The notes under the pieces: generated by a model | The model's input: only the letters and a program-made list of their open reading frames with translations | What the model was told of the DNA's origin: nothing | Databases searched by the model: none | Translations under genes and position numbers: made by a program | Shown here: positions 49,427 to 57,503 of the stretch, one piece after another | Layout of the letters: the number at the start of each line of letters is the position of its first letter | Position numbering within the stretch: position 1 is the stretch's first letter | Assembly: GCF_003019035.1 (NCBI RefSeq) | Contig: NZ_CP027448.1 | Source of the DNA: Escherichia coli | GTDB lineage: Bacteria; Pseudomonadota; Gammaproteobacteria; Enterobacterales; Enterobacteriaceae | Reading direction: 5' to 3' (one strand) | Length of the DNA stretch: 64,000 nucleotides

Positions 49427-50746
49427 TTACTTTCTCTTATTTCCTGGGGTCGCGCCCCCAGTGAGCTTATTCAAAAGTTTGTCCACTGCCTGTATATCGT
49501 TTTCTACAGCGGCTTGTTCGTCATCAGTCAAAGGGATTTCCTGCATCAGCTTGAGTAGATTCTGGCGACCTTCCAAGTATTGTGCTTCAGATGAAGATTT
49601 TGGCATATAAAATGAGCATTTTGCACATGCCATCCGATGGGGGCATTGCTCAAAAAAGTCATAAGTACAGAAACCGTGTCCAAGATCATAATAACGCCAT
49701 GGCTTCCCGGATGCTACCAGCCCTTCAGCTATCGCGTCTTGATCAATGAGAACTGAAACCATGCGGCGATTACATTCAAAGTAACCAGCTTTATCCAGTG
49801 ATCCTGCCAACCTCGTCGGTGTAATTTCGACATAATGTCGGGTAGATTCAGGTGAAGAATGCCCCAACCATTTCTGTAGCTCAAAAATATCAAGTGGTTC
49901 CCTGGCGTTGTAAAGCTGACTGGCTATAGTGGCTCTTGCCCGATGGCTGGTGATTTTACCTCTGGCATCCTGCTCAGGTATACCAGCCTTTCTGCATAGC
50001 AAAGGGATTAGCGAATTATTAATATAACTACTGTGTACCCGTTTCCCCCTGTGCATGAACAAAAAACGGACGCTTTCACCTGTTTTAGAATCTTCCTGGA
50101 GGGGGTGGGGGTTACGAACAAGTTCCCATTGTTCGATATATTCCCCGATAATAGGGTCAACTGGCTTTGTGAATGCCGCGTAAGTCTTGCTAACGGGTAC
50201 ATCTATCAGACAGATACGGGATACATTATTTTCTTCTGGCTGTTGCCAGCGGATACACCCACACTGCATACGTAGAATTTCATCACGTCTGAGGCCTCCA
50301 AATAACCAGAGAACGCTGAGTGCTCTGACCATCTCCAGTGGATAAAAATAAGGATATGCAACACAGTTTGGTAAATCCGACTCCTGCAGGTTCTGTCCGG
50401 CGTGAAGTAATTTACACCACATATCATCGGCCACAATACGAGGCTCTGGTCCAACCAGGGAAGTCAAGCTACGCGGTGCCCTGAAAACTCTTTCTGGGCT
50501 GAATCGTACAGGTATCCATCCCCATTCCTGCAAGTCATGAAAGAAAGTTCTAATATGACCCAACATCCTGGCTCTCGCTGCAGGCATCATCATTTTGCCA
50601 CGACGGTCACGATACATGCCCCCAGGGGTTGCCCATTCACCAACTTTCATTCTACAAGCGGCGGTCACCCAGACGATCGCGGTGTCCCGTGTCCAATCAG
50701 ATGGTGACAGACAGGTTGGATAGCACTCAGCTAACCAGCTGACCAC
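49427..50746 (-). CDS. Tyrosine recombinase/integrase (439 aa)
   Basis: Catalytic signature residues: ...GGLRRDE..., ...SHRARAT..., ...LGHSSPESTRHYV... Confidence 0.85.
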   Translation of the reverse strand: MVSWLAECYPTCLSPSDWTRDTAIVWVTAACRMKVGEWATPGGMYRDRRGKMMMPAARARMLGHIRTFFHDLQEWGWIPVRFSPERVFRAPRSLTSLVGPEPRIVADDMWCKLLHAGQNLQESDLPNCVAYPYFYPLEMVRALSVLWLFGGLRRDEILRMQCGCIRWQQPEENNVSRICLIDVPVSKTYAAFTKPVDPIIGEYIEQWELVRNPHPLQEDSKTGESVRFLFMHRGKRVHSSYINNSLIPLLCRKAGIPEQDARGKITSHRARATIASQLYNAREPLDIFELQKWLGHSSPESTRHYVEITPTRLAGSLDKAGYFECNRRMVSVLIDQDAIAEGLVASGKPWRYYDLGHGFCTYDFFEQCPHRMACAKCSFYMPKSSSEAQYLEGRQNLLKLMQEIPLTDDEQAAVENDIQAVDKLLNKLTGGATPGNKRK

Positions 50747-51677
50747 ACTTTAGCAAAACGTACCAACCGGACAAAATAGATGAAGGGCGAAGTACTGAGG
50801 TAGCACGCCACCGTTTGCACCATACCAGCCATTTAGTTGGTACATCAGCTGTTGCATTATATTCGCGGGGAGGACGGCGACGTTGTGTTATTCGGTAATC
50901 AACCCCTTCCTCAATAGTCCCTGATGCAGCCAGTATACGCGATAGAGTAGCTGAGGCTTCCCGGAGGGAATCCGGGCACGTTGCAGCAATCTGTTGCAAC
51001 GTGGTCACGGTGATATGGTCTAGTTGAGCATCCCTTTGCAGAAGCATTGCCATACACATGGCATTTCTGATGCCGTTGTTCCGACTATCACGAGGCACAT
51101 ATCCCAGAACCTGCATCATATTGTCAAGCTGGCTGACGGCAAAATCGGTGCTCTGTCGGCCAAAAACCTTAAGACAGAGCCGATATTGATAGAATATGCC
51201 ACAGTGTTCCAGCCGCTCAAACCCACATAGCAACCATGCTAACGCTATAACATATTGCCGACAGTTGCCGCTGGCTCCAAACCGTCGACGAAATTCCCCT
51301 TCGCTGTTGCAAATAACTTCTAACCACTCTTCTTGTGTCCAGGCCCAGTATGTTTTCCGGATGCGCTGCATCTCTAGGACTATATCGTGAATAGATGAAT
51401 TGTAGGGGGCCTTGGCCGCATGCATTTTTGTTAGCGTGTCGCGTAGTGGTAAAAGAAGGCGGGAAAGCCGTTTTTGTATATCAGGTGACCAGTTTTTACC
51501 TCCTTGCTGGAAGTGGTCGACCAATGTATCCAGTGCCGCAAGCTCGCTTTCAGAGATCTCCGATCGGGTATCCCAAAGTAGGGCAGGAAGACTGAGTGAT
51601 GTTGTCGGACAAGGCGCTGTATGTTCAGATTGCATCATGGAGAAGGATCCTGCTGTTGTAGTACAGTAAGGCGGCAA
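50727..51677 (-). CDS. Recombinase-operon middle gene (316 aa), divergent/uncertain
   Basis: Overlaps both neighbours (translational coupling); no clear R-H-R-Y motifs seen by eye. Confidence 0.55.
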   Translation of the reverse strand: MPPYCTTTAGSFSMMQSEHTAPCPTTSLSLPALLWDTRSEISESELAALDTLVDHFQQGGKNWSPDIQKRLSRLLLPLRDTLTKMHAAKAPYNSSIHDIVLEMQRIRKTYWAWTQEEWLEVICNSEGEFRRRFGASGNCRQYVIALAWLLCGFERLEHCGIFYQYRLCLKVFGRQSTDFAVSQLDNMMQVLGYVPRDSRNNGIRNAMCMAMLLQRDAQLDHITVTTLQQIAATCPDSLREASATLSRILAASGTIEEGVDYRITQRRRPPREYNATADVPTKWLVWCKRWRATSVLRPSSILSGWYVLLKCGQLVS

Positions 51678-52687
51678 GTATGCAAGGATGCGACCGTGTA
51701 ATTGAAACGACTACTCAGATCACGTGCGCTGAGATGAATATAGAGCAGAGTTGACTGGATACGACGGTGGCCAGCGAATGCAGCAATTTCGTGGATGTCC
51801 CACCCCACGCGTGCCAGTTCTGTCAGACAAAGATGTCGGAATGTGTGGGTGCTGATGAGTGGAAGATCAGCCTTAATAGCTAAACCGCGAACTACTTTTG
51901 ACCAAGTCCAGTTGCTAATAGGTTCTGCCCGATTACGCGGAGAGCGTGAGAGAAACAACGGACCGCGAGATGAGCTTAGCATACGACGTTCAGTGAGCCA
52001 TGCTGTGTAGAGTTCCCCCGTCACAGGAGAATAGGGCACAACCCGACCAAAGCGGTTTTTGGTATGCTCAGCGCGCACAGTGAGCAAGCGTTGAGAAGGG
52101 TCAATATCTCCGGTAGCTACTGTGCAAAGTTCTTCTCTGCGTAATCCGCAGTCGTAGGCCAGTGCCAGCATAAAACGAGTACGGATATCAGCTTGTCCGG
52201 CTACCTCAAGAAAGCGCAACCACTCCGCATCATCCGGGATCCACGGTAGCCGCCGCTGCAACGGCACTATACCAGCTTTTCCTTTCCCTCCGTTTTTCCA
52301 GACACCTCGTCTGACAGGATTTCTCTCCCGTATCCCCTCCTCACAAAGCCAATAGTTGTACAGTCGTACCACCGTCAGCCGGTGGCGGATAGTGGCAGCT
52401 GCCAGCTGGCGACCGGTATGCAGGCTGCGGACATAGAGTGCGACCGTATCACGTCCAGCGACAGCAGCCGTCAGGGCAACAGAGTGACAGAAAGCGAGCC
52501 AGTCATTGACGCCACGGGCATAGGCATCAATGGTGTTTGGAGCACACAGCAGGTCCTCCTGCAGGCACACCCACCGGCAAGCTGAAGGATCGGCCGACAG
52601 AAAAGGCAGCGCATCCAGCAGTTTCTTGTGCACAGCATCCCCCTTTTCGATAACAGAATGTGTTGTATGAAATATAGTCAATTCCAA
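51635..52687 (-). CDS. Tyrosine recombinase (XerC/D-like, 350 aa)
   Basis: ...CGLRREEL..., ...HTFRHLCLTELA..., ...GHRRIQSTLLYIH...; start lies 9 bp from element end. Confidence 0.85.
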   Translation of the reverse strand: MELTIFHTTHSVIEKGDAVHKKLLDALPFLSADPSACRWVCLQEDLLCAPNTIDAYARGVNDWLAFCHSVALTAAVAGRDTVALYVRSLHTGRQLAAATIRHRLTVVRLYNYWLCEEGIRERNPVRRGVWKNGGKGKAGIVPLQRRLPWIPDDAEWLRFLEVAGQADIRTRFMLALAYDCGLRREELCTVATGDIDPSQRLLTVRAEHTKNRFGRVVPYSPVTGELYTAWLTERRMLSSSRGPLFLSRSPRNRAEPISNWTWSKVVRGLAIKADLPLISTHTFRHLCLTELARVGWDIHEIAAFAGHRRIQSTLLYIHLSARDLSSRFNYTVASLHTCRLTVLQQQDPSP

Positions 52688-52696
52688 ATAACATAG

Positions 52697-53841
52697 AAGC
52701 GAAGCGGCTGGGCATAAAAATGGGAGTACCGTGGTTTCAGCTGAAGTCGGTGAAATTTCCGGAGCCGGTCATCGCCTTCTCCAGTAATTACGCGCTATAC
52801 GCATCGATGTCGAACAGGGTTATGTCTCATCTCGAGGAGCTGGCGCCGGGCGTGGAGCAGTACAGTATTGATGAGATGTTTCTCGACGTGCGGGGTATTG
52901 ACAGCTGCATCGATTTCGAGGATTTCGGCCGGCAGCTGCGTGAACACGTCAGGAACGGGACTGGCCTGACTATCGGTGTCGGAATGGGGCTAACCAAAAC
53001 GCTGGCAAAGTCAGCACAGTGGGCTTCCAAAGAGTGGCCACAGTTTGGTGGCGTGCTGGCGTTAACGCCAGGCAATATCCGCCGTACGGAAAAACTGCTG
53101 TCACTGCAGCCGGTGGAGGAAATCTGGGGGGTAGGCAGCAGGATATCAAAGAAGCTGAACACAATGGGGATAACAACTGCACTGCAGCTGGCGCGCGCTA
53201 ACCCTGTATTTATCAGGAAAAACTTCAATGTGGTTCTGGAGAGAACGGTCCGGGAACTCACCGGAGAAAGCTGTATTTCACTGGAGGAAGCACCGCCCCC
53301 CAAACAGCAGATAGTCTGCAGCAGGAGCTTTGGGGAACGTGTCACAACTTATGAAGCCATGCGACAGGCAGTTTGTCAGTACGCTGAGCGTGCAGCTGAA
53401 AAGCTGCGCGGCGAGCGTCAGTTCTGCAGGCATATTGCCGTGTTTGTGAAAACATCGCCGTTCGCCGTAAATGAGCCCTACTACGGTAATCTGGCCAGTG
53501 AAAAACTGCTCATCCCCACGCAGGATACACGGGACATCATTGCCGCTGCCGTCAGAGCTCTGGACAGGATCTGGGGGGATGGTCACCGTTACGCAAAGGC
53601 AGGCTGTATGCTGAACGATTTCGCTCCTGACGGGGTTTCGCTGTTGAACCTGTTCGATGATACTCAGCTCCGAAGCAACAGCAATCAGCTGATGAAAGTT
53701 GTGGACGGTATTAATCATTCAGGACTCGGAAAAGTGTGGTTTGCAGGCCGGGGGATTGCATCTGAATGGCAAATGAAACGGGAGATGCTTTCACCAGACT
53801 ATACAACTCGCTGGTCTGAACTACCAGTAGCGAAATTATGA
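52697..53841 (+). pseudogene. impB: 3' portion of umuC/impB-like Y-family polymerase gene (continues frame of 44281-44407)
   Basis: EAKRLGIKMGVPWFQLKSVKFPEPVIAFSSNYALYASMSNRVM...SRSFGERVTTYEAMRQAV... matches remembered UmuC/MucB; track ORF 52720-53841 starts at internal Met. Confidence 0.88.
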
Positions 53842-53977
53842 GTCACGTAGAAGTTGAGAAAAAGTGGTGATTTCAGTGTGAAAGAATTTTTATTTTTCTT
53901 TTATAATCAAAGAAGTAGCCATGAAATAGGCATGGTGAAAAACATAAGACAAGGATGCTCTCCGGCATCCTTGTCGC

Positions 53978-54949
53978 TTACTCACTTGACTCAGGAAGTC
54001 TTTCCAGAATACGTTTTATTGCCTCATCTATCTCCGACTGTGCCTCAGCGGAAATGCGGGAAAACTCATAAACAACAAGTCGTTTCTTTGAATCAATTTT
54101 CTTTCTTGCAAATTGGTTGCGATCTGAAAATTCTCTCAGCTTCTCAGTTTGAACCGTGCGGGTCGGGCGAACTATCAGCGATTTGCTCTCAGCTCTGATA
54201 ACAGCCAGAATTTTGCTTTTATCAATTGCCGGATAATCTGGCATGGTCTTCAACCGATGCTGAACTTTTTCCATCAGTTCTGTTACTGATCTTTGCTTGT
54301 TGTTTGCTTCTTCAGCTAGTTTCAGTAAAAAATGATAATCCGGCAACGAAATATCATTTATCACAGGGAAAACTGCAACCATTTCATCTGGCACTGCTGC
54401 GGCCTGAAACGCACGAGTCACTTTCGCAGGAGAGAGATTTTCTGCCTGAGCAATCTCTTCCTTCGTCATACTGGTTCCATACGTAACTTCGAGTCGTTTT
54501 CCCAGCTCACGCAAGCTATGCTCACGTGCGGTTTGTATGTCTTTTGCCAGTTGTCGTGCATCTGACAGTTCAATATCGTCCTTTGTAACAAGTATTTCGA
54601 ATTTAACATTGCTATAAATGCAGGCTGCCCGGCGACGTGTGCCGTCCAGGATCTCAATTCGCCCGTTGACCTCTCTCCCAATAGCGGGGAAAAACTGCTG
54701 CAGTTTTATGGTACGGGAAATGTCACTGACTGACTCAGGGGATAACATTGCCTGGTCGCGACCATTAACAGATGAATCAACAAATGTCTTCGATTCGATC
54801 TCACCGCTTAGCACAACCGTTTTCACAAATTTGGCCTGTTTACCAGATTTGAGAGTAAAGGTTTTCACATCGCCATCGCTTTCAAGCATTCGCGCAAATT
54901 CTGAATTGCTGTTGCCAAGAACTCGGCCACGAGCTAAAACTTTCCTCAT
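53978..54949 (-). CDS. parB: ParB partition protein (P1/P7-type)
   Basis: 323 aa, ParB-like HTH region; 4-nt overlap with parA. Confidence 0.82.
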   Translation of the reverse strand: MRKVLARGRVLGNSNSEFARMLESDGDVKTFTLKSGKQAKFVKTVVLSGEIESKTFVDSSVNGRDQAMLSPESVSDISRTIKLQQFFPAIGREVNGRIEILDGTRRRAACIYSNVKFEILVTKDDIELSDARQLAKDIQTAREHSLRELGKRLEVTYGTSMTKEEIAQAENLSPAKVTRAFQAAAVPDEMVAVFPVINDISLPDYHFLLKLAEEANNKQRSVTELMEKVQHRLKTMPDYPAIDKSKILAVIRAESKSLIVRPTRTVQTEKLREFSDRNQFARKKIDSKKRLVVYEFSRISAEAQSEIDEAIKRILERLPESSE

Positions 54950-56151
54950 TTTGATGCTCCACGGATATATTCAATTCGATCAAAAACAGCCTTAGTAAAT
55001 CGTTCAGCTTCAGTTCGGGCTTTTTTCAGTGCTTCAACACTTCCAGGGTAGGAAACGGGGTTTGCACTAATAATGGTGTCAAACGACTCACCACACCGTT
55101 CGAATCCGTCAAGTCGCGGCAGTGACGCATCAAGAATGTTACTTGCGTACACTTCACGCGCCAGACTATGTGACGTCTCGTGGTCACGTTTGCCGGTCAT
55201 TTTTGACATAAACCCAATACTGGCGCTGAGCCTGGGTTCCACACCTTCTTCTTCAAGGCGTTCCAGCATCTCCGGTAAACGTGTCAGGTATTTCAACGTG
55301 GAGTGAAAATCAACCTGTGCCGGTGGAGTAGGGGTCAAGAGCAAATCGCTCGCGGCCAGTCCATTCAGGAGGAACGGATCAAGGTGAGGGCCTGTATCAA
55401 TAAAGACAAAATCATAATCACCTGCGATACGGTCAATAATTGTTTTTTTGAGCACCTCAGAAGGTTTCAGACCTGGTAAATGTTCTGTAACTAATGACTC
55501 CCACTGGCTGGCGACAAAGCCGTCGTCGATCGACGCAGGGATGATATCGACGCCTGGGATAATAGTTGGGCGAATTACAGCTTCTCTCAACGTTTCTGCA
55601 TCGAGATCATTCAGCATTGCCTGGGCTGCTGTTTCAAGAACAGTACCAATGCTATGAGTGTGATCAAGAAACATAGTACTGGATGCCTGCGGATCAAGGT
55701 CAATAACCAGGATGCGGAGATCATGACGAAGCAAGTCCGGATGTACTCGTAATGCATGTGCGAGAGTGACTGTCGTGACTGTTTTTGATACACCGCCTTT
55801 AAGATTGACGACAAAAATCACGTATGGTTCTTTGTGAATATCGCGGTACTTAGGTATTTGACGGTGGGCGTAAATGTCGATAACGTTCTGAATAGTGAGA
55901 GCGTATTGCTCTACGTTGCCAACCTGCTTTTTATTGAATTCGTAACCGCTGTCCTCCATCTCTTTTACAGCAAGTTCAACGATGCGACGGCTTAACTTAG
56001 GCAGTTTTGCCACAGCATTTCTGGTATATGTCTGATGATATTGAGTCAGATTAAATTCTTTTCTCTGAGCCTCAATATCCCTGCTCATAGCCTGAAGTAA
56101 GGCACTTGCTCTGAGAGCTATGGTGCCAACACTACCGTAATCACGTCTCAT
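54946..56151 (-). CDS. parA: ParA partition ATPase (type Ia, with N-terminal HTH extension)
   Basis: 401 aa; deviant Walker A VNLKGGVSKT. Confidence 0.9.
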   Translation of the reverse strand: MRRDYGSVGTIALRASALLQAMSRDIEAQRKEFNLTQYHQTYTRNAVAKLPKLSRRIVELAVKEMEDSGYEFNKKQVGNVEQYALTIQNVIDIYAHRQIPKYRDIHKEPYVIFVVNLKGGVSKTVTTVTLAHALRVHPDLLRHDLRILVIDLDPQASSTMFLDHTHSIGTVLETAAQAMLNDLDAETLREAVIRPTIIPGVDIIPASIDDGFVASQWESLVTEHLPGLKPSEVLKKTIIDRIAGDYDFVFIDTGPHLDPFLLNGLAASDLLLTPTPPAQVDFHSTLKYLTRLPEMLERLEEEGVEPRLSASIGFMSKMTGKRDHETSHSLAREVYASNILDASLPRLDGFERCGESFDTIISANPVSYPGSVEALKKARTEAERFTKAVFDRIEYIRGASK

Positions 56152-56569
56152 TGTTTTCCCCTTCCCCTAAAGATGGATTCCTTGCGCGTCAAATATGTGT
56201 AAAGCTTAATCACATTGTACACAACACAACAAAACGTACAACATTTATAACCACGACATTAAATTAATGTACGTGGCATTATATTTATCACCAAAAGGAA
56301 TAGGTAGTGCTCGCCGCAGCCTTGAGACCGAGCATCGCGAGCGAACTGGCGAGGAAGCGCAACGGCGCTATAGTCACATAATGCTCGTACGCACCTGATT
56401 TAAAGGATATTGTGGGAAACACCCAAAGTTTTCTCTGACAGTTCAGATCAACTTTTCCACATACTCACAGACTGTTTTTTAAGCTATTTTTATTCCTTTT
56501 TAAAAGTTTTCTCCTTTTTGTCCATTTTAGGATGCCCAGAGACCGCGTCATGTCTGCCTTTCAGGCCTC

Positions 56570-56700
56570 CTTTATGGGAATCACCCAGGGTTATGCTGGG
56601 AAATACCACGGATTAATATGGGTAACAGCCCGAATTTTTATGGGAAATGCCACGAGTTGGTATGGGAAACACCTCGTATTGCTATGGGAAACGCCCCTGG
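56570..56700 (+). repeat. Iteron array upstream of rep (six about 22-bp repeats, core ATGGGAAA)
   Basis: Repeats centred near 56573, 56597, 56618, 56641, 56663, 56685. Confidence 0.7.
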
Positions 56701-56744: not shown

Positions 56745-57503
56745 TTGTTGGATGGGCTTTTGCATGACAATATGGGCGAGTTAAAAACAACCCATACGAT
56801 AATGACAATGACAATAAGTACCGCGAAAAAATCAGTCAACATTAGTCAATCCAATGAACTGACAGAAGCAGCTTACTACTTGCCGTTGCAAGCCAAGAGG
56901 GTGCTATGGTTATGCCTTATTCAGTGCTATCCACTGAAAGATGATCCTGATTCGGTATCGCCAGTATTCACAGTTCTTGTTGCTGATTATCAAAAGTATT
57001 TCAAAGTGTCTGTTGATACAGCGTCATCTGATGTTAAAAAGGGCGTCACTGCACTGGCTGAAAGTAGTGTTGTGTTTTATCCCAAAGACGGAGAGTTTGA
57101 CGAGATCAAACGGCCCTGGCTGGCTGAGGCTGGGCTAAAAAAAGGGCGCGGAAAATGGCAAATTGAATTTAATTACAAAGTCATGCCCTATCTGATGGGA
57201 CTGACCAGCCAGTTCACCACGTATTCACTCTATGACTGCGGAAAAATAAACAGTGTTAGGGTCATTCGACTGTATGAAAGCCTGTGCCAGTACCGTTCCA
57301 GCGGAGTATGGGTTACTACTCAGGAATGGCTGTCAGAGCGATTCATGCTTCCTGAATCGCAAAGATCAAACTTCGCTGAAATGAAGAGAACGTTTATCAA
57401 TCCGGCACTGAAAAAGATAAACGCAAATACACCACTTAAAGCCGCAATGACACAGAATGAAGATGGCAGGTTAGTCTTCACCATTGTTGATTCGAAAAAC
57501 TAA
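56745..57503 (+). CDS. Iteron-binding replication initiator (RepFIB-like)
   Basis: 252-aa ORF flanked by iterons on both sides; true start may be upstream non-ATG. Confidence 0.7.
   Translation: MLDGLLHDNMGELKTTHTIMTMTISTAKKSVNISQSNELTEAAYYLPLQAKRVLWLCLIQCYPLKDDPDSVSPVFTVLVADYQKYFKVSVDTASSDVKKGVTALAESSVVFYPKDGEFDEIKRPWLAEAGLKKGRGKWQIEFNYKVMPYLMGLTSQFTTYSLYDCGKINSVRVIRLYESLCQYRSSGVWVTTQEWLSERFMLPESQRSNFAEMKRTFINPALKKINANTPLKAAMTQNEDGRLVFTIVDSKN

Follow-up and report, generated by a model that had tools for sequence, protein, structure and literature searches.

A probable pMT1-class parS site at the cis end of a P1par-family partition cassette on an Escherichia coli IncF/RepFIB plasmid

The locus considered here lies within a stretch of 64 kb (64,000 nucleotides, hereafter the window) from an F-type plasmid of Escherichia coli that is 99.9% identical over 10 kb to the plasmid pRHB07-C12_2 (typed IncFIA/FIB/FII). 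It comprises a gap of exactly 136 nt, 53842-53977, between two convergent stop codons, namely the TGA of a Y-family polymerase ORF (53839-53841, plus strand) and the TAA of parB (53980-53978, minus strand), and the GC content of this gap is 37% as against 51% for the whole window. The polymerase ORF is of the impB/umuC type, with the Pfam domains IMS, IMS_C and DUF4113. Read on the minus strand, which is the sense strand of parB, the order of features is parA and parB, which overlap by 4 nt, followed by a hairpin and then by an 83-bp parS that begins 40 nt past the parB stop codon. The initial annotation had described four heptamer-like motifs and a hairpin between convergent impB and parB, all of which are found where it had placed them, and these are collected in Table 1 together with the elements to which they were subsequently assigned. 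One mechanically listed ORF, 53854-54198 on the plus strand (114 aa, TTG start), runs antisense to parB and spans both the parS and the hairpin; it has no RefSeq annotation and is taken to be spurious.

Table 1. Features of the partition locus and its convergent neighbour, in window coordinates; minus-strand elements read from the higher to the lower number.
Feature	Coordinates	Strand	Remarks
umuC/impB pseudogene	52696-53841	+	lacks the 5' end; convergent on parS; Pfam IMS match starts at profile position 49
parS, centromere-like site	53856-53938	-	83 bp; stacks gap-free on the annotated P1 and P7 parS
box A4 position	53856-53862	-	TTTTCTC at the P1/P7 boxA(4) position; degenerate, 5/7 to ATTTCAC
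box B2	53865-53870	-	TCACCA at the annotated P1/P7 boxB(2) position; 1-nt overlap with A3
heptamer-like motif	53868-53875		TGATTTCA
box A3	53870-53876	-	CTGAAAT; orientation opposite to A2; heptamer shared with P7 boxA(3)
box A2	53878-53884	-	CTTTCAC; distance from A1 43 nt, equal to P1 and P7
heptamer-like motif	53878-53884		GTGAAAG
IHF-site homologue	53905-53917		AATCAAAGAAGTA on +, TACTTCTTTGATT on -; 12/13 to WATCAANNNNTTR
heptamer-like motif	53920-53927		CATGAAAT
box A1	53921-53927	-	ATTTCAT; same heptamer as annotated P7 boxA(1)
box B1	53933-53938	-	TCACCA at the annotated P1/P7 boxB(1) position, 11 nt before box A1
heptamer-like motif	53935-53941		GTGAAAA
terminator-like element of the parAB operon	53938-53975	-	stem 53948-53975, then UUAUGUUUUU (53947 to 53938)
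parB, centromere-binding protein	53978-54949	-	323 aa; Pfam ParB PF08775
parA, type Ia partition ATPase with N-terminal HTH	54946-56151	-	401 aa; Pfam HTH_54 (ParA HTH) and AAA_31/CbiA

What kind of partition system is encoded here? The protein partners expected of a P1par-family site are both present, the ParA carrying its HTH at the N-terminus and the ParB being of the P1 type, which combines an HTH with a C-terminal dimer domain. Over 401 aa, ParA shares 97% identity with the protein in the ParA position of Yersinia pestis KIM pMT-1, and ParB is 90% identical to pMT-1 ParB (292/323 residues), with both proteins the same length as their pMT-1 counterparts. Within the last 63 residues of ParB, 59 are identical to pMT1 and four differ; this is the C-terminal domain, which in P1 makes the contact with box B, and the substitutions in it include I285 and S287 in the window where pMT1 has T and P. 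Identity falls to 68% with the ParB of P7 and to 43% with that of P1. ParB residues 137-317 match the solved P1 ParB-parS structures 1ZX4 and 2NTZ with E = 2e-29.

The gene on the other side of the gap is a remnant. Homology to an intact Klebsiella umuC begins 126 nt inside the gene, such that some 42 N-terminal codons are gone, the same stretch is labelled in RefSeq as 'umuC, incomplete, missing N-terminus', and the remnant has neither an upstream umuD nor a promoter. The homology to intact Klebsiella umuDC breaks at 52696, adjoining an integrase gene. This gene is one of three ORFs (439, 316 and 350 aa) that overlap in tandem on the minus strand (49427-52687); the first and third carry Pfam phage-integrase domains and the middle one has no Pfam match, a layout that resembles a 'recombinase in trio' element and that, because it abuts the truncation point, may have caused the truncation of umuC. 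In pMT1 only the final ~125 nt of the impB/umuC gene are kept. A convergent Y-family polymerase gene beside parB and parS recurs in Salmonella Pomona, in a Salmonella IncFIB/FII plasmid and in Klebsiella, and since these are distant family members the arrangement is taken to be old.

The sequence of the gap was compared with the parS sites of P1 (GenBank AF234172) and P7 (AF503408), both of which are annotated box by box and lie at 1611-1693 (L001) and 1712-1794 (L002), respectively, in the numbering of the comparison pieces, and with pMT-1 of Y. pestis KIM (NC_004838), for which the parS boundaries were taken from the plasmid record by homology. The alignment with P1/P7 parS that had been proposed as a check is colinear and gap-free with both annotated sites. 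Read from 53938 to 53856, in the parB sense, the elements follow one another as boxB1-boxA1-IHF site-boxA2-boxA3-boxB2-boxA4, and the spacings, which are identical to those of P1 and P7 throughout, are 11 nt from B1 to A1, 10 from A1 to the IHF site, 43 from A1 to A2, 8 from A2 to A3, 6 from A3 to B2 and 8 from B2 to A4. The IHF-site homologue thus occupies the exact position of the annotated P1 and P7 IHF sites, and it is used here purely as a positional homology, as IHF consensus matches are not enriched in the window (48 against 55 expected) and a single match is non-significant alone. At the box A4 position the window has one extra nucleotide relative to pMT1, and A4 is degenerate or poorly conserved across the whole group of sites with TCACCA as their box B. 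With respect to the heptamer-like motifs, which had been likened to P1/P7 box-A elements, three of the four do correspond to boxes, namely A3, A2 and A1, while the fourth, GTGAAAA, turns out to be made up of the T-run and box B1. The first list did not include either copy of box B, the IHF site or box A4, which is degenerate.

Could such short words have come together by chance in an AT-rich intergenic spacer, without any centromere function? The gap is indeed AT-rich, short A/T-rich words are common in DNA of this kind, and the IHF consensus, as noted, is not enriched. Nonetheless, the parS is the sole place in the 64-kb window where four TTTCA/TGAAA pentamers fall within 83 bp (expected 0.34, Poisson P ~4e-4), and the A2-A3-B2 composite TTTCANNNTGAAATCNCCA has just one exact match in the window, with 0.23 expected even when two mismatches are allowed. 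Added to this is the exact spacing, in which the site is colinear with the two annotated parS sites and with eight other members of the family, and on this ground the chance explanation is effectively refuted. A two-mismatch match to the composite, TGTCACAGTGGAATCGCCA, is found at 62930-62948 on the minus strand, where it contains the P1-like hexamer TCGCCA and lies within mechanically listed ORFs; as a candidate second parS core it was rejected, since a single such match fits chance expectation.

The other place in which a centromere might be sought, and which had been raised as the alternative, is the region upstream of parA. Here there are RepFIB iterons and a small palindrome, and no composite of boxes A and B, and the suggestion is rejected. 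The iterons number at least six at a 22-bp spacing (56571-56697, core TATGGGAAAYRCC), with an isolated copy at 56405-56423, and they lie upstream of a Rep3-type, RepFIB-like initiator gene (ORF 56745-57503, plus strand). This RepFIB-like replicon is divergent from parAB, such that the par cassette sits beside its replicon in the manner of P1 and pMT1. The palindrome, CCACGTACATTAA-TTTAATGTCGTGG at 56251-56276, is imperfect with exact 7-nt arms (ACATTAA/TTAATGT). It precedes the parA start by some 100-125 nt, at the margin of the block that is conserved in pMT1 and Klebsiella as well, and may be a ParA operator/promoter region.

A further question is whether the gap acts at the level of transcription. 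Within the parS is a sigma-70-like pair, GTGAAA-18-TATAAT at 53878-53907 on the plus strand, which points toward the 3' end of parB and hence in the antisense direction. The proposition that the gap serves mainly as a promoter, from which a transcript, antisense or outward, would run into the 3' end of parB, can draw on the score of this pair (10/12) and on the fact that promoters are predicted inside the P1 parS too. Against this, promoter-like matches are rarer than in shuffled sequence (2 against 5.2 expected), box A2 doubles as the -35 hexamer while the -10 hexamer is supplied by AT-rich sequence of the IHF spacer, no RNA family came up when 53500-54300 was scanned against Rfam at E <= 1, and there is no conserved ORF. 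A promoter role is therefore extremely unlikely, and the sigma-70-like pair inside the parS is probably incidental.

With the gap read as a parS, the matter becomes one of class. Over the 83 positions the site is identical to that of pMT1 at 70 (84%), compared with 51 for P7 and 49 for P1. The P1 site (incB), which is the structural paradigm (PDB 1ZX4, 2NTZ), shares with the window its element order, its spacings and its length of 83 bp, but its box B is TCGCCA where the window has TCACCA, and its parS follows the parB stop at a distance of 5 nt, without any hairpin. The P7 site has the same 83-bp architecture and spacing, the same A1 (ATTTCAT) and A3 (CTGAAAT) and likewise a hairpin between parB and parS, although its box B is GTCCCG/TTCCCA rather than TCACCA and the sequence of its hairpin is unrelated to that of the window. 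With TCACCA, the window thus carries neither the TCGCCA hexamer of P1 specificity nor the TTCCCA/GTCCCG of P7 specificity. It is with pMT1 that the agreement is most complete: the site lies in the same place after parB, with the same hairpin-then-parS layout and with TCACCA at both box Bs, and B1, A1, A2, A3, B2 and the TTGATT core of the IHF site are all the same as in the window. The 13 differences are substitutions that are confined to the spacers and the box A4 position, where the window also has its extra nucleotide. Beyond the parS, the window differs from pMT1 in its host, an E. coli IncF/RepFIB plasmid, and in its longer umuC remnant. Because the TCACCA box B, the ParA and ParB identities and the parS identity all match pMT1, the parS of the window is assigned to the pMT1 class. 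The earlier proposal of a centromere next to parB consequently holds as far as a P1/P7-type parS is concerned, with the qualification that the class is that of pMT1 and of neither P1 nor P7. For the pMT1 partition system, itself a member of the P1par family, the references are Youngren et al. 2000 (J Bacteriol 182:3924) and Dabrazhynetskaya et al. 2005 (J Bacteriol 187:5977).

The ParB family was found in 4,547 plasmid records, and relatives were sampled down to 43% ParB identity, giving 11 sites for comparison. The A2-A3-B2 core is present downstream of parB in all 11, and the TTTCA core of A2 and the TGAAAT core of A3 are likewise invariant in 11/11, as against no invariant column at all in the spacers. 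The sites fall into three box B classes: TCGCCA, which comprises P1 and a Salmonella IncFIB/FII plasmid; TTCCCA-like, which comprises P7, pKpQIL, an Acinetobacter plasmid and a Pantoea plasmid; and TCACCA, which comprises pMT1, the window, Klebsiella pF5_1, Salmonella Pomona pATCC10729_01 and E. coli E110019. In the five sites of the TCACCA group all 12 of the box B positions are invariant. A plasmid search with the interval gave 612 records, 104 of them at 95% identity or more, 428 at 80-90% and 80 at 60-80%. Almost all of the matches listed in the highest band are from E. coli, whereas the rows sampled from the 80-90% band are chiefly Klebsiella, with some Enterobacter, Citrobacter, Serratia and E. 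coli, and include Y. pestis at 88%. By organism over all bands, Klebsiella accounts for 339 records, Escherichia for 102, Enterobacter for 65 and Yersinia for 63. Of 5426 complete E. coli genomes, 260 gave a match to a 1.6-kb query that spans the locus (52500-54100), with at least 80% of the query covered in 113. A full-text literature search for the A3-B2 core string found no paper, and a search of the literature on IncFIB and parS gave nothing specific to this plasmid lineage.

The hairpin that stands between parB and the parS consists of the arms GACAAGGATGC and GCATCCTTGTC, which form 11 perfect pairs (6 GC) around a 6-nt loop, CGGAGA (53948-53975). The perfect hairpin reported earlier (CAAGGATGCTCTCCGGCATCCTTG, from 53950) is therefore present, with a stem that is longer than was first described. 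Its folding energy is -23.6 kcal/mol (z = -4.8) on the minus strand and -22.1 kcal/mol (z = -5.3) on the plus strand, and none of 200 shuffles was as stable. The plasmids pMT1, Klebsiella pF5_1, Salmonella Pomona and E. coli E110019 have conserved a homologous hairpin with its T-run. In this TCACCA group the core of the stem does not vary, and one outer pair has changed in a compensatory way, being C:G in the window and A:U in Klebsiella, while in pMT1 there is a T/T mismatch at the outer stem where the window has C:G. The T-run has 6-8 uninterrupted T in the relatives as opposed to the interrupted UUAUGUUUUU of the window, and with the U-run broken in this way the efficiency of termination may be modest. 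Given that the hairpin is conserved in the TCACCA group, unrelated in P7 and absent in P1, it would be an accessory terminator of parAB and not a part of the parS.

Does the hairpin terminate transcription from one side or from both? It had been suggested that it could end both genes, and the part of this suggestion that stands is the one concerning parAB, where the terminator scan called the hairpin on the minus (parB) strand, followed there by TTATGTTTTT. The claim is not supported for impB, as on the plus strand the hairpin is followed by GCTTACTC, which offers no U-run, and the scan gave no call. That the hairpin might still be a bidirectional terminator for parB and impB transcription is prompted by its palindrome-like stem, the stability of which extends to both strands, and by the Salmonella Pomona hairpin, which is flanked by A8 and T8 runs and has a bidirectional look. 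Aside from the lack of a plus-strand U-run and scan call, however, a transcript from the impB side would cross the whole of the parS before reaching the hairpin, the umuC/impB gene here is without its 5' end, umuD or promoter, and pMT1 retains the hairpin though just ~125 nt of impB are left. Bidirectional termination in the window is accordingly judged unlikely, and it is plausible, from the scan and the U-run, that the hairpin is a terminator of parAB and not a bidirectional one. The A8/T8-flanked hairpin of Salmonella Pomona pATCC10729_01, which has parB on one side and an intact Y-family polymerase gene on the other, looks like a true bidirectional terminator in that plasmid, a symmetry that the copy in the window has lost.

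Taken together, the gap is best read as the cis part of a P1par-family (type Ia ParABS) cassette of the pMT1 class, complete with parA and parB, the terminator hairpin and the 83-bp parS, a reading that rests on sequence comparison and to which a probability of about 0.93 is given. The element is of a known kind, a P1par-family parS of pMT1 specificity, orthologous to a site that has been characterised by experiment and with the same functional boxes throughout, and there is nothing new in it. The background for how it might work comes from P1, where ParB binds both the heptameric box A and the hexameric box B and where BA and AABA clusters of these boxes flank the IHF site (PMC10999674). The minimal unit for ParB binding in P1 is A2-A3-B2, only A2-A3 and B2 being needed, and box B, especially B2, is the discriminator of species specificity and of partition incompatibility (PMC10999674). 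ParB and parS of pMT1 make up a functional pair, one that is orthogonal to other ParABS systems, and a single 86-bp pMT1 parS suffices for the formation of ParB foci (PMC7602700, PMC6275241).

By homology to P1, P7 and pMT1, a mechanism can be proposed for the site in the window. ParB dimers would place their HTH domains on the box A heptamers and their C-terminal dimer domain on the TCACCA of box B. Bending of the AT-rich centre by IHF would then bring the B1-A1 and A2-A3-B2(-A4) arms into one wrapped ParB complex, and this complex would seed the partition complex that stimulates nucleoid-bound ParA-ATP, leading to segregation of the plasmid copies. The TCACCA of box B is expected to dictate which ParB acts on the site. 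In the same scheme the hairpin and its U-run would stop parAB transcription just before the parS, with no role envisaged for the convergent umuC remnant.

Is the cassette still at work? The site could instead be an inactive relic, inherited from a pMT1-like ancestor and carried by a plasmid that now depends on other maintenance systems, and box A4, which is degenerate and interrupted, together with the ccdAB and the typed IncFIA and IncFII replicons of the closest relative plasmid, would fit with this. Yet both par genes are intact at full length, and the boxes required for ParB binding in P1 (PMC10999674), A2, A3 and B2, are identical to those of pMT1, which also holds for B1, A1 and the IHF core. 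The locus is, moreover, conserved at 95% or more in ~104 plasmid records and matched in the 260 complete E. coli genomes mentioned above, and A4 is degenerate throughout the functional pMT1 group. A relic is thus very unlikely. There is also the idea that the E. coli lineage, having lost A4 and having a ParB with I285 and S287, constitutes a new partition-incompatibility subspecies despite its pMT1 box B. This is very unlikely indeed; if it were true, coexistence with pMT1-type plasmids and with Klebsiella plasmids of the TCACCA type would be possible, and it would mean that P1par specificity can shift with box B unchanged.

The importance of the finding is mostly one of correct annotation. 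Public records of these plasmids give CDSs only and leave the parS unmarked, so the coordinates in Table 1 fill a gap. In terms of plasmid biology, since TCACCA is expected to choose the ParB, partition incompatibility should depend on it as well, and the predicted incompatibility would involve pMT1 together with the many plasmids of Klebsiella, Enterobacter and Salmonella in which box B is the same. As TCACCA is common to the E. coli IncF/RepFIB lineage, to pMT1 and to the sampled relatives from Klebsiella, Salmonella and E. coli, plasmids of the E. coli lineage should be partition-incompatible with pMT1 and these relatives. By the same reasoning, plasmids of this lineage should titrate the pMT1 ParB/parS tool for fluorescent labelling, or cross-react with it, when the two are present in the same strain.
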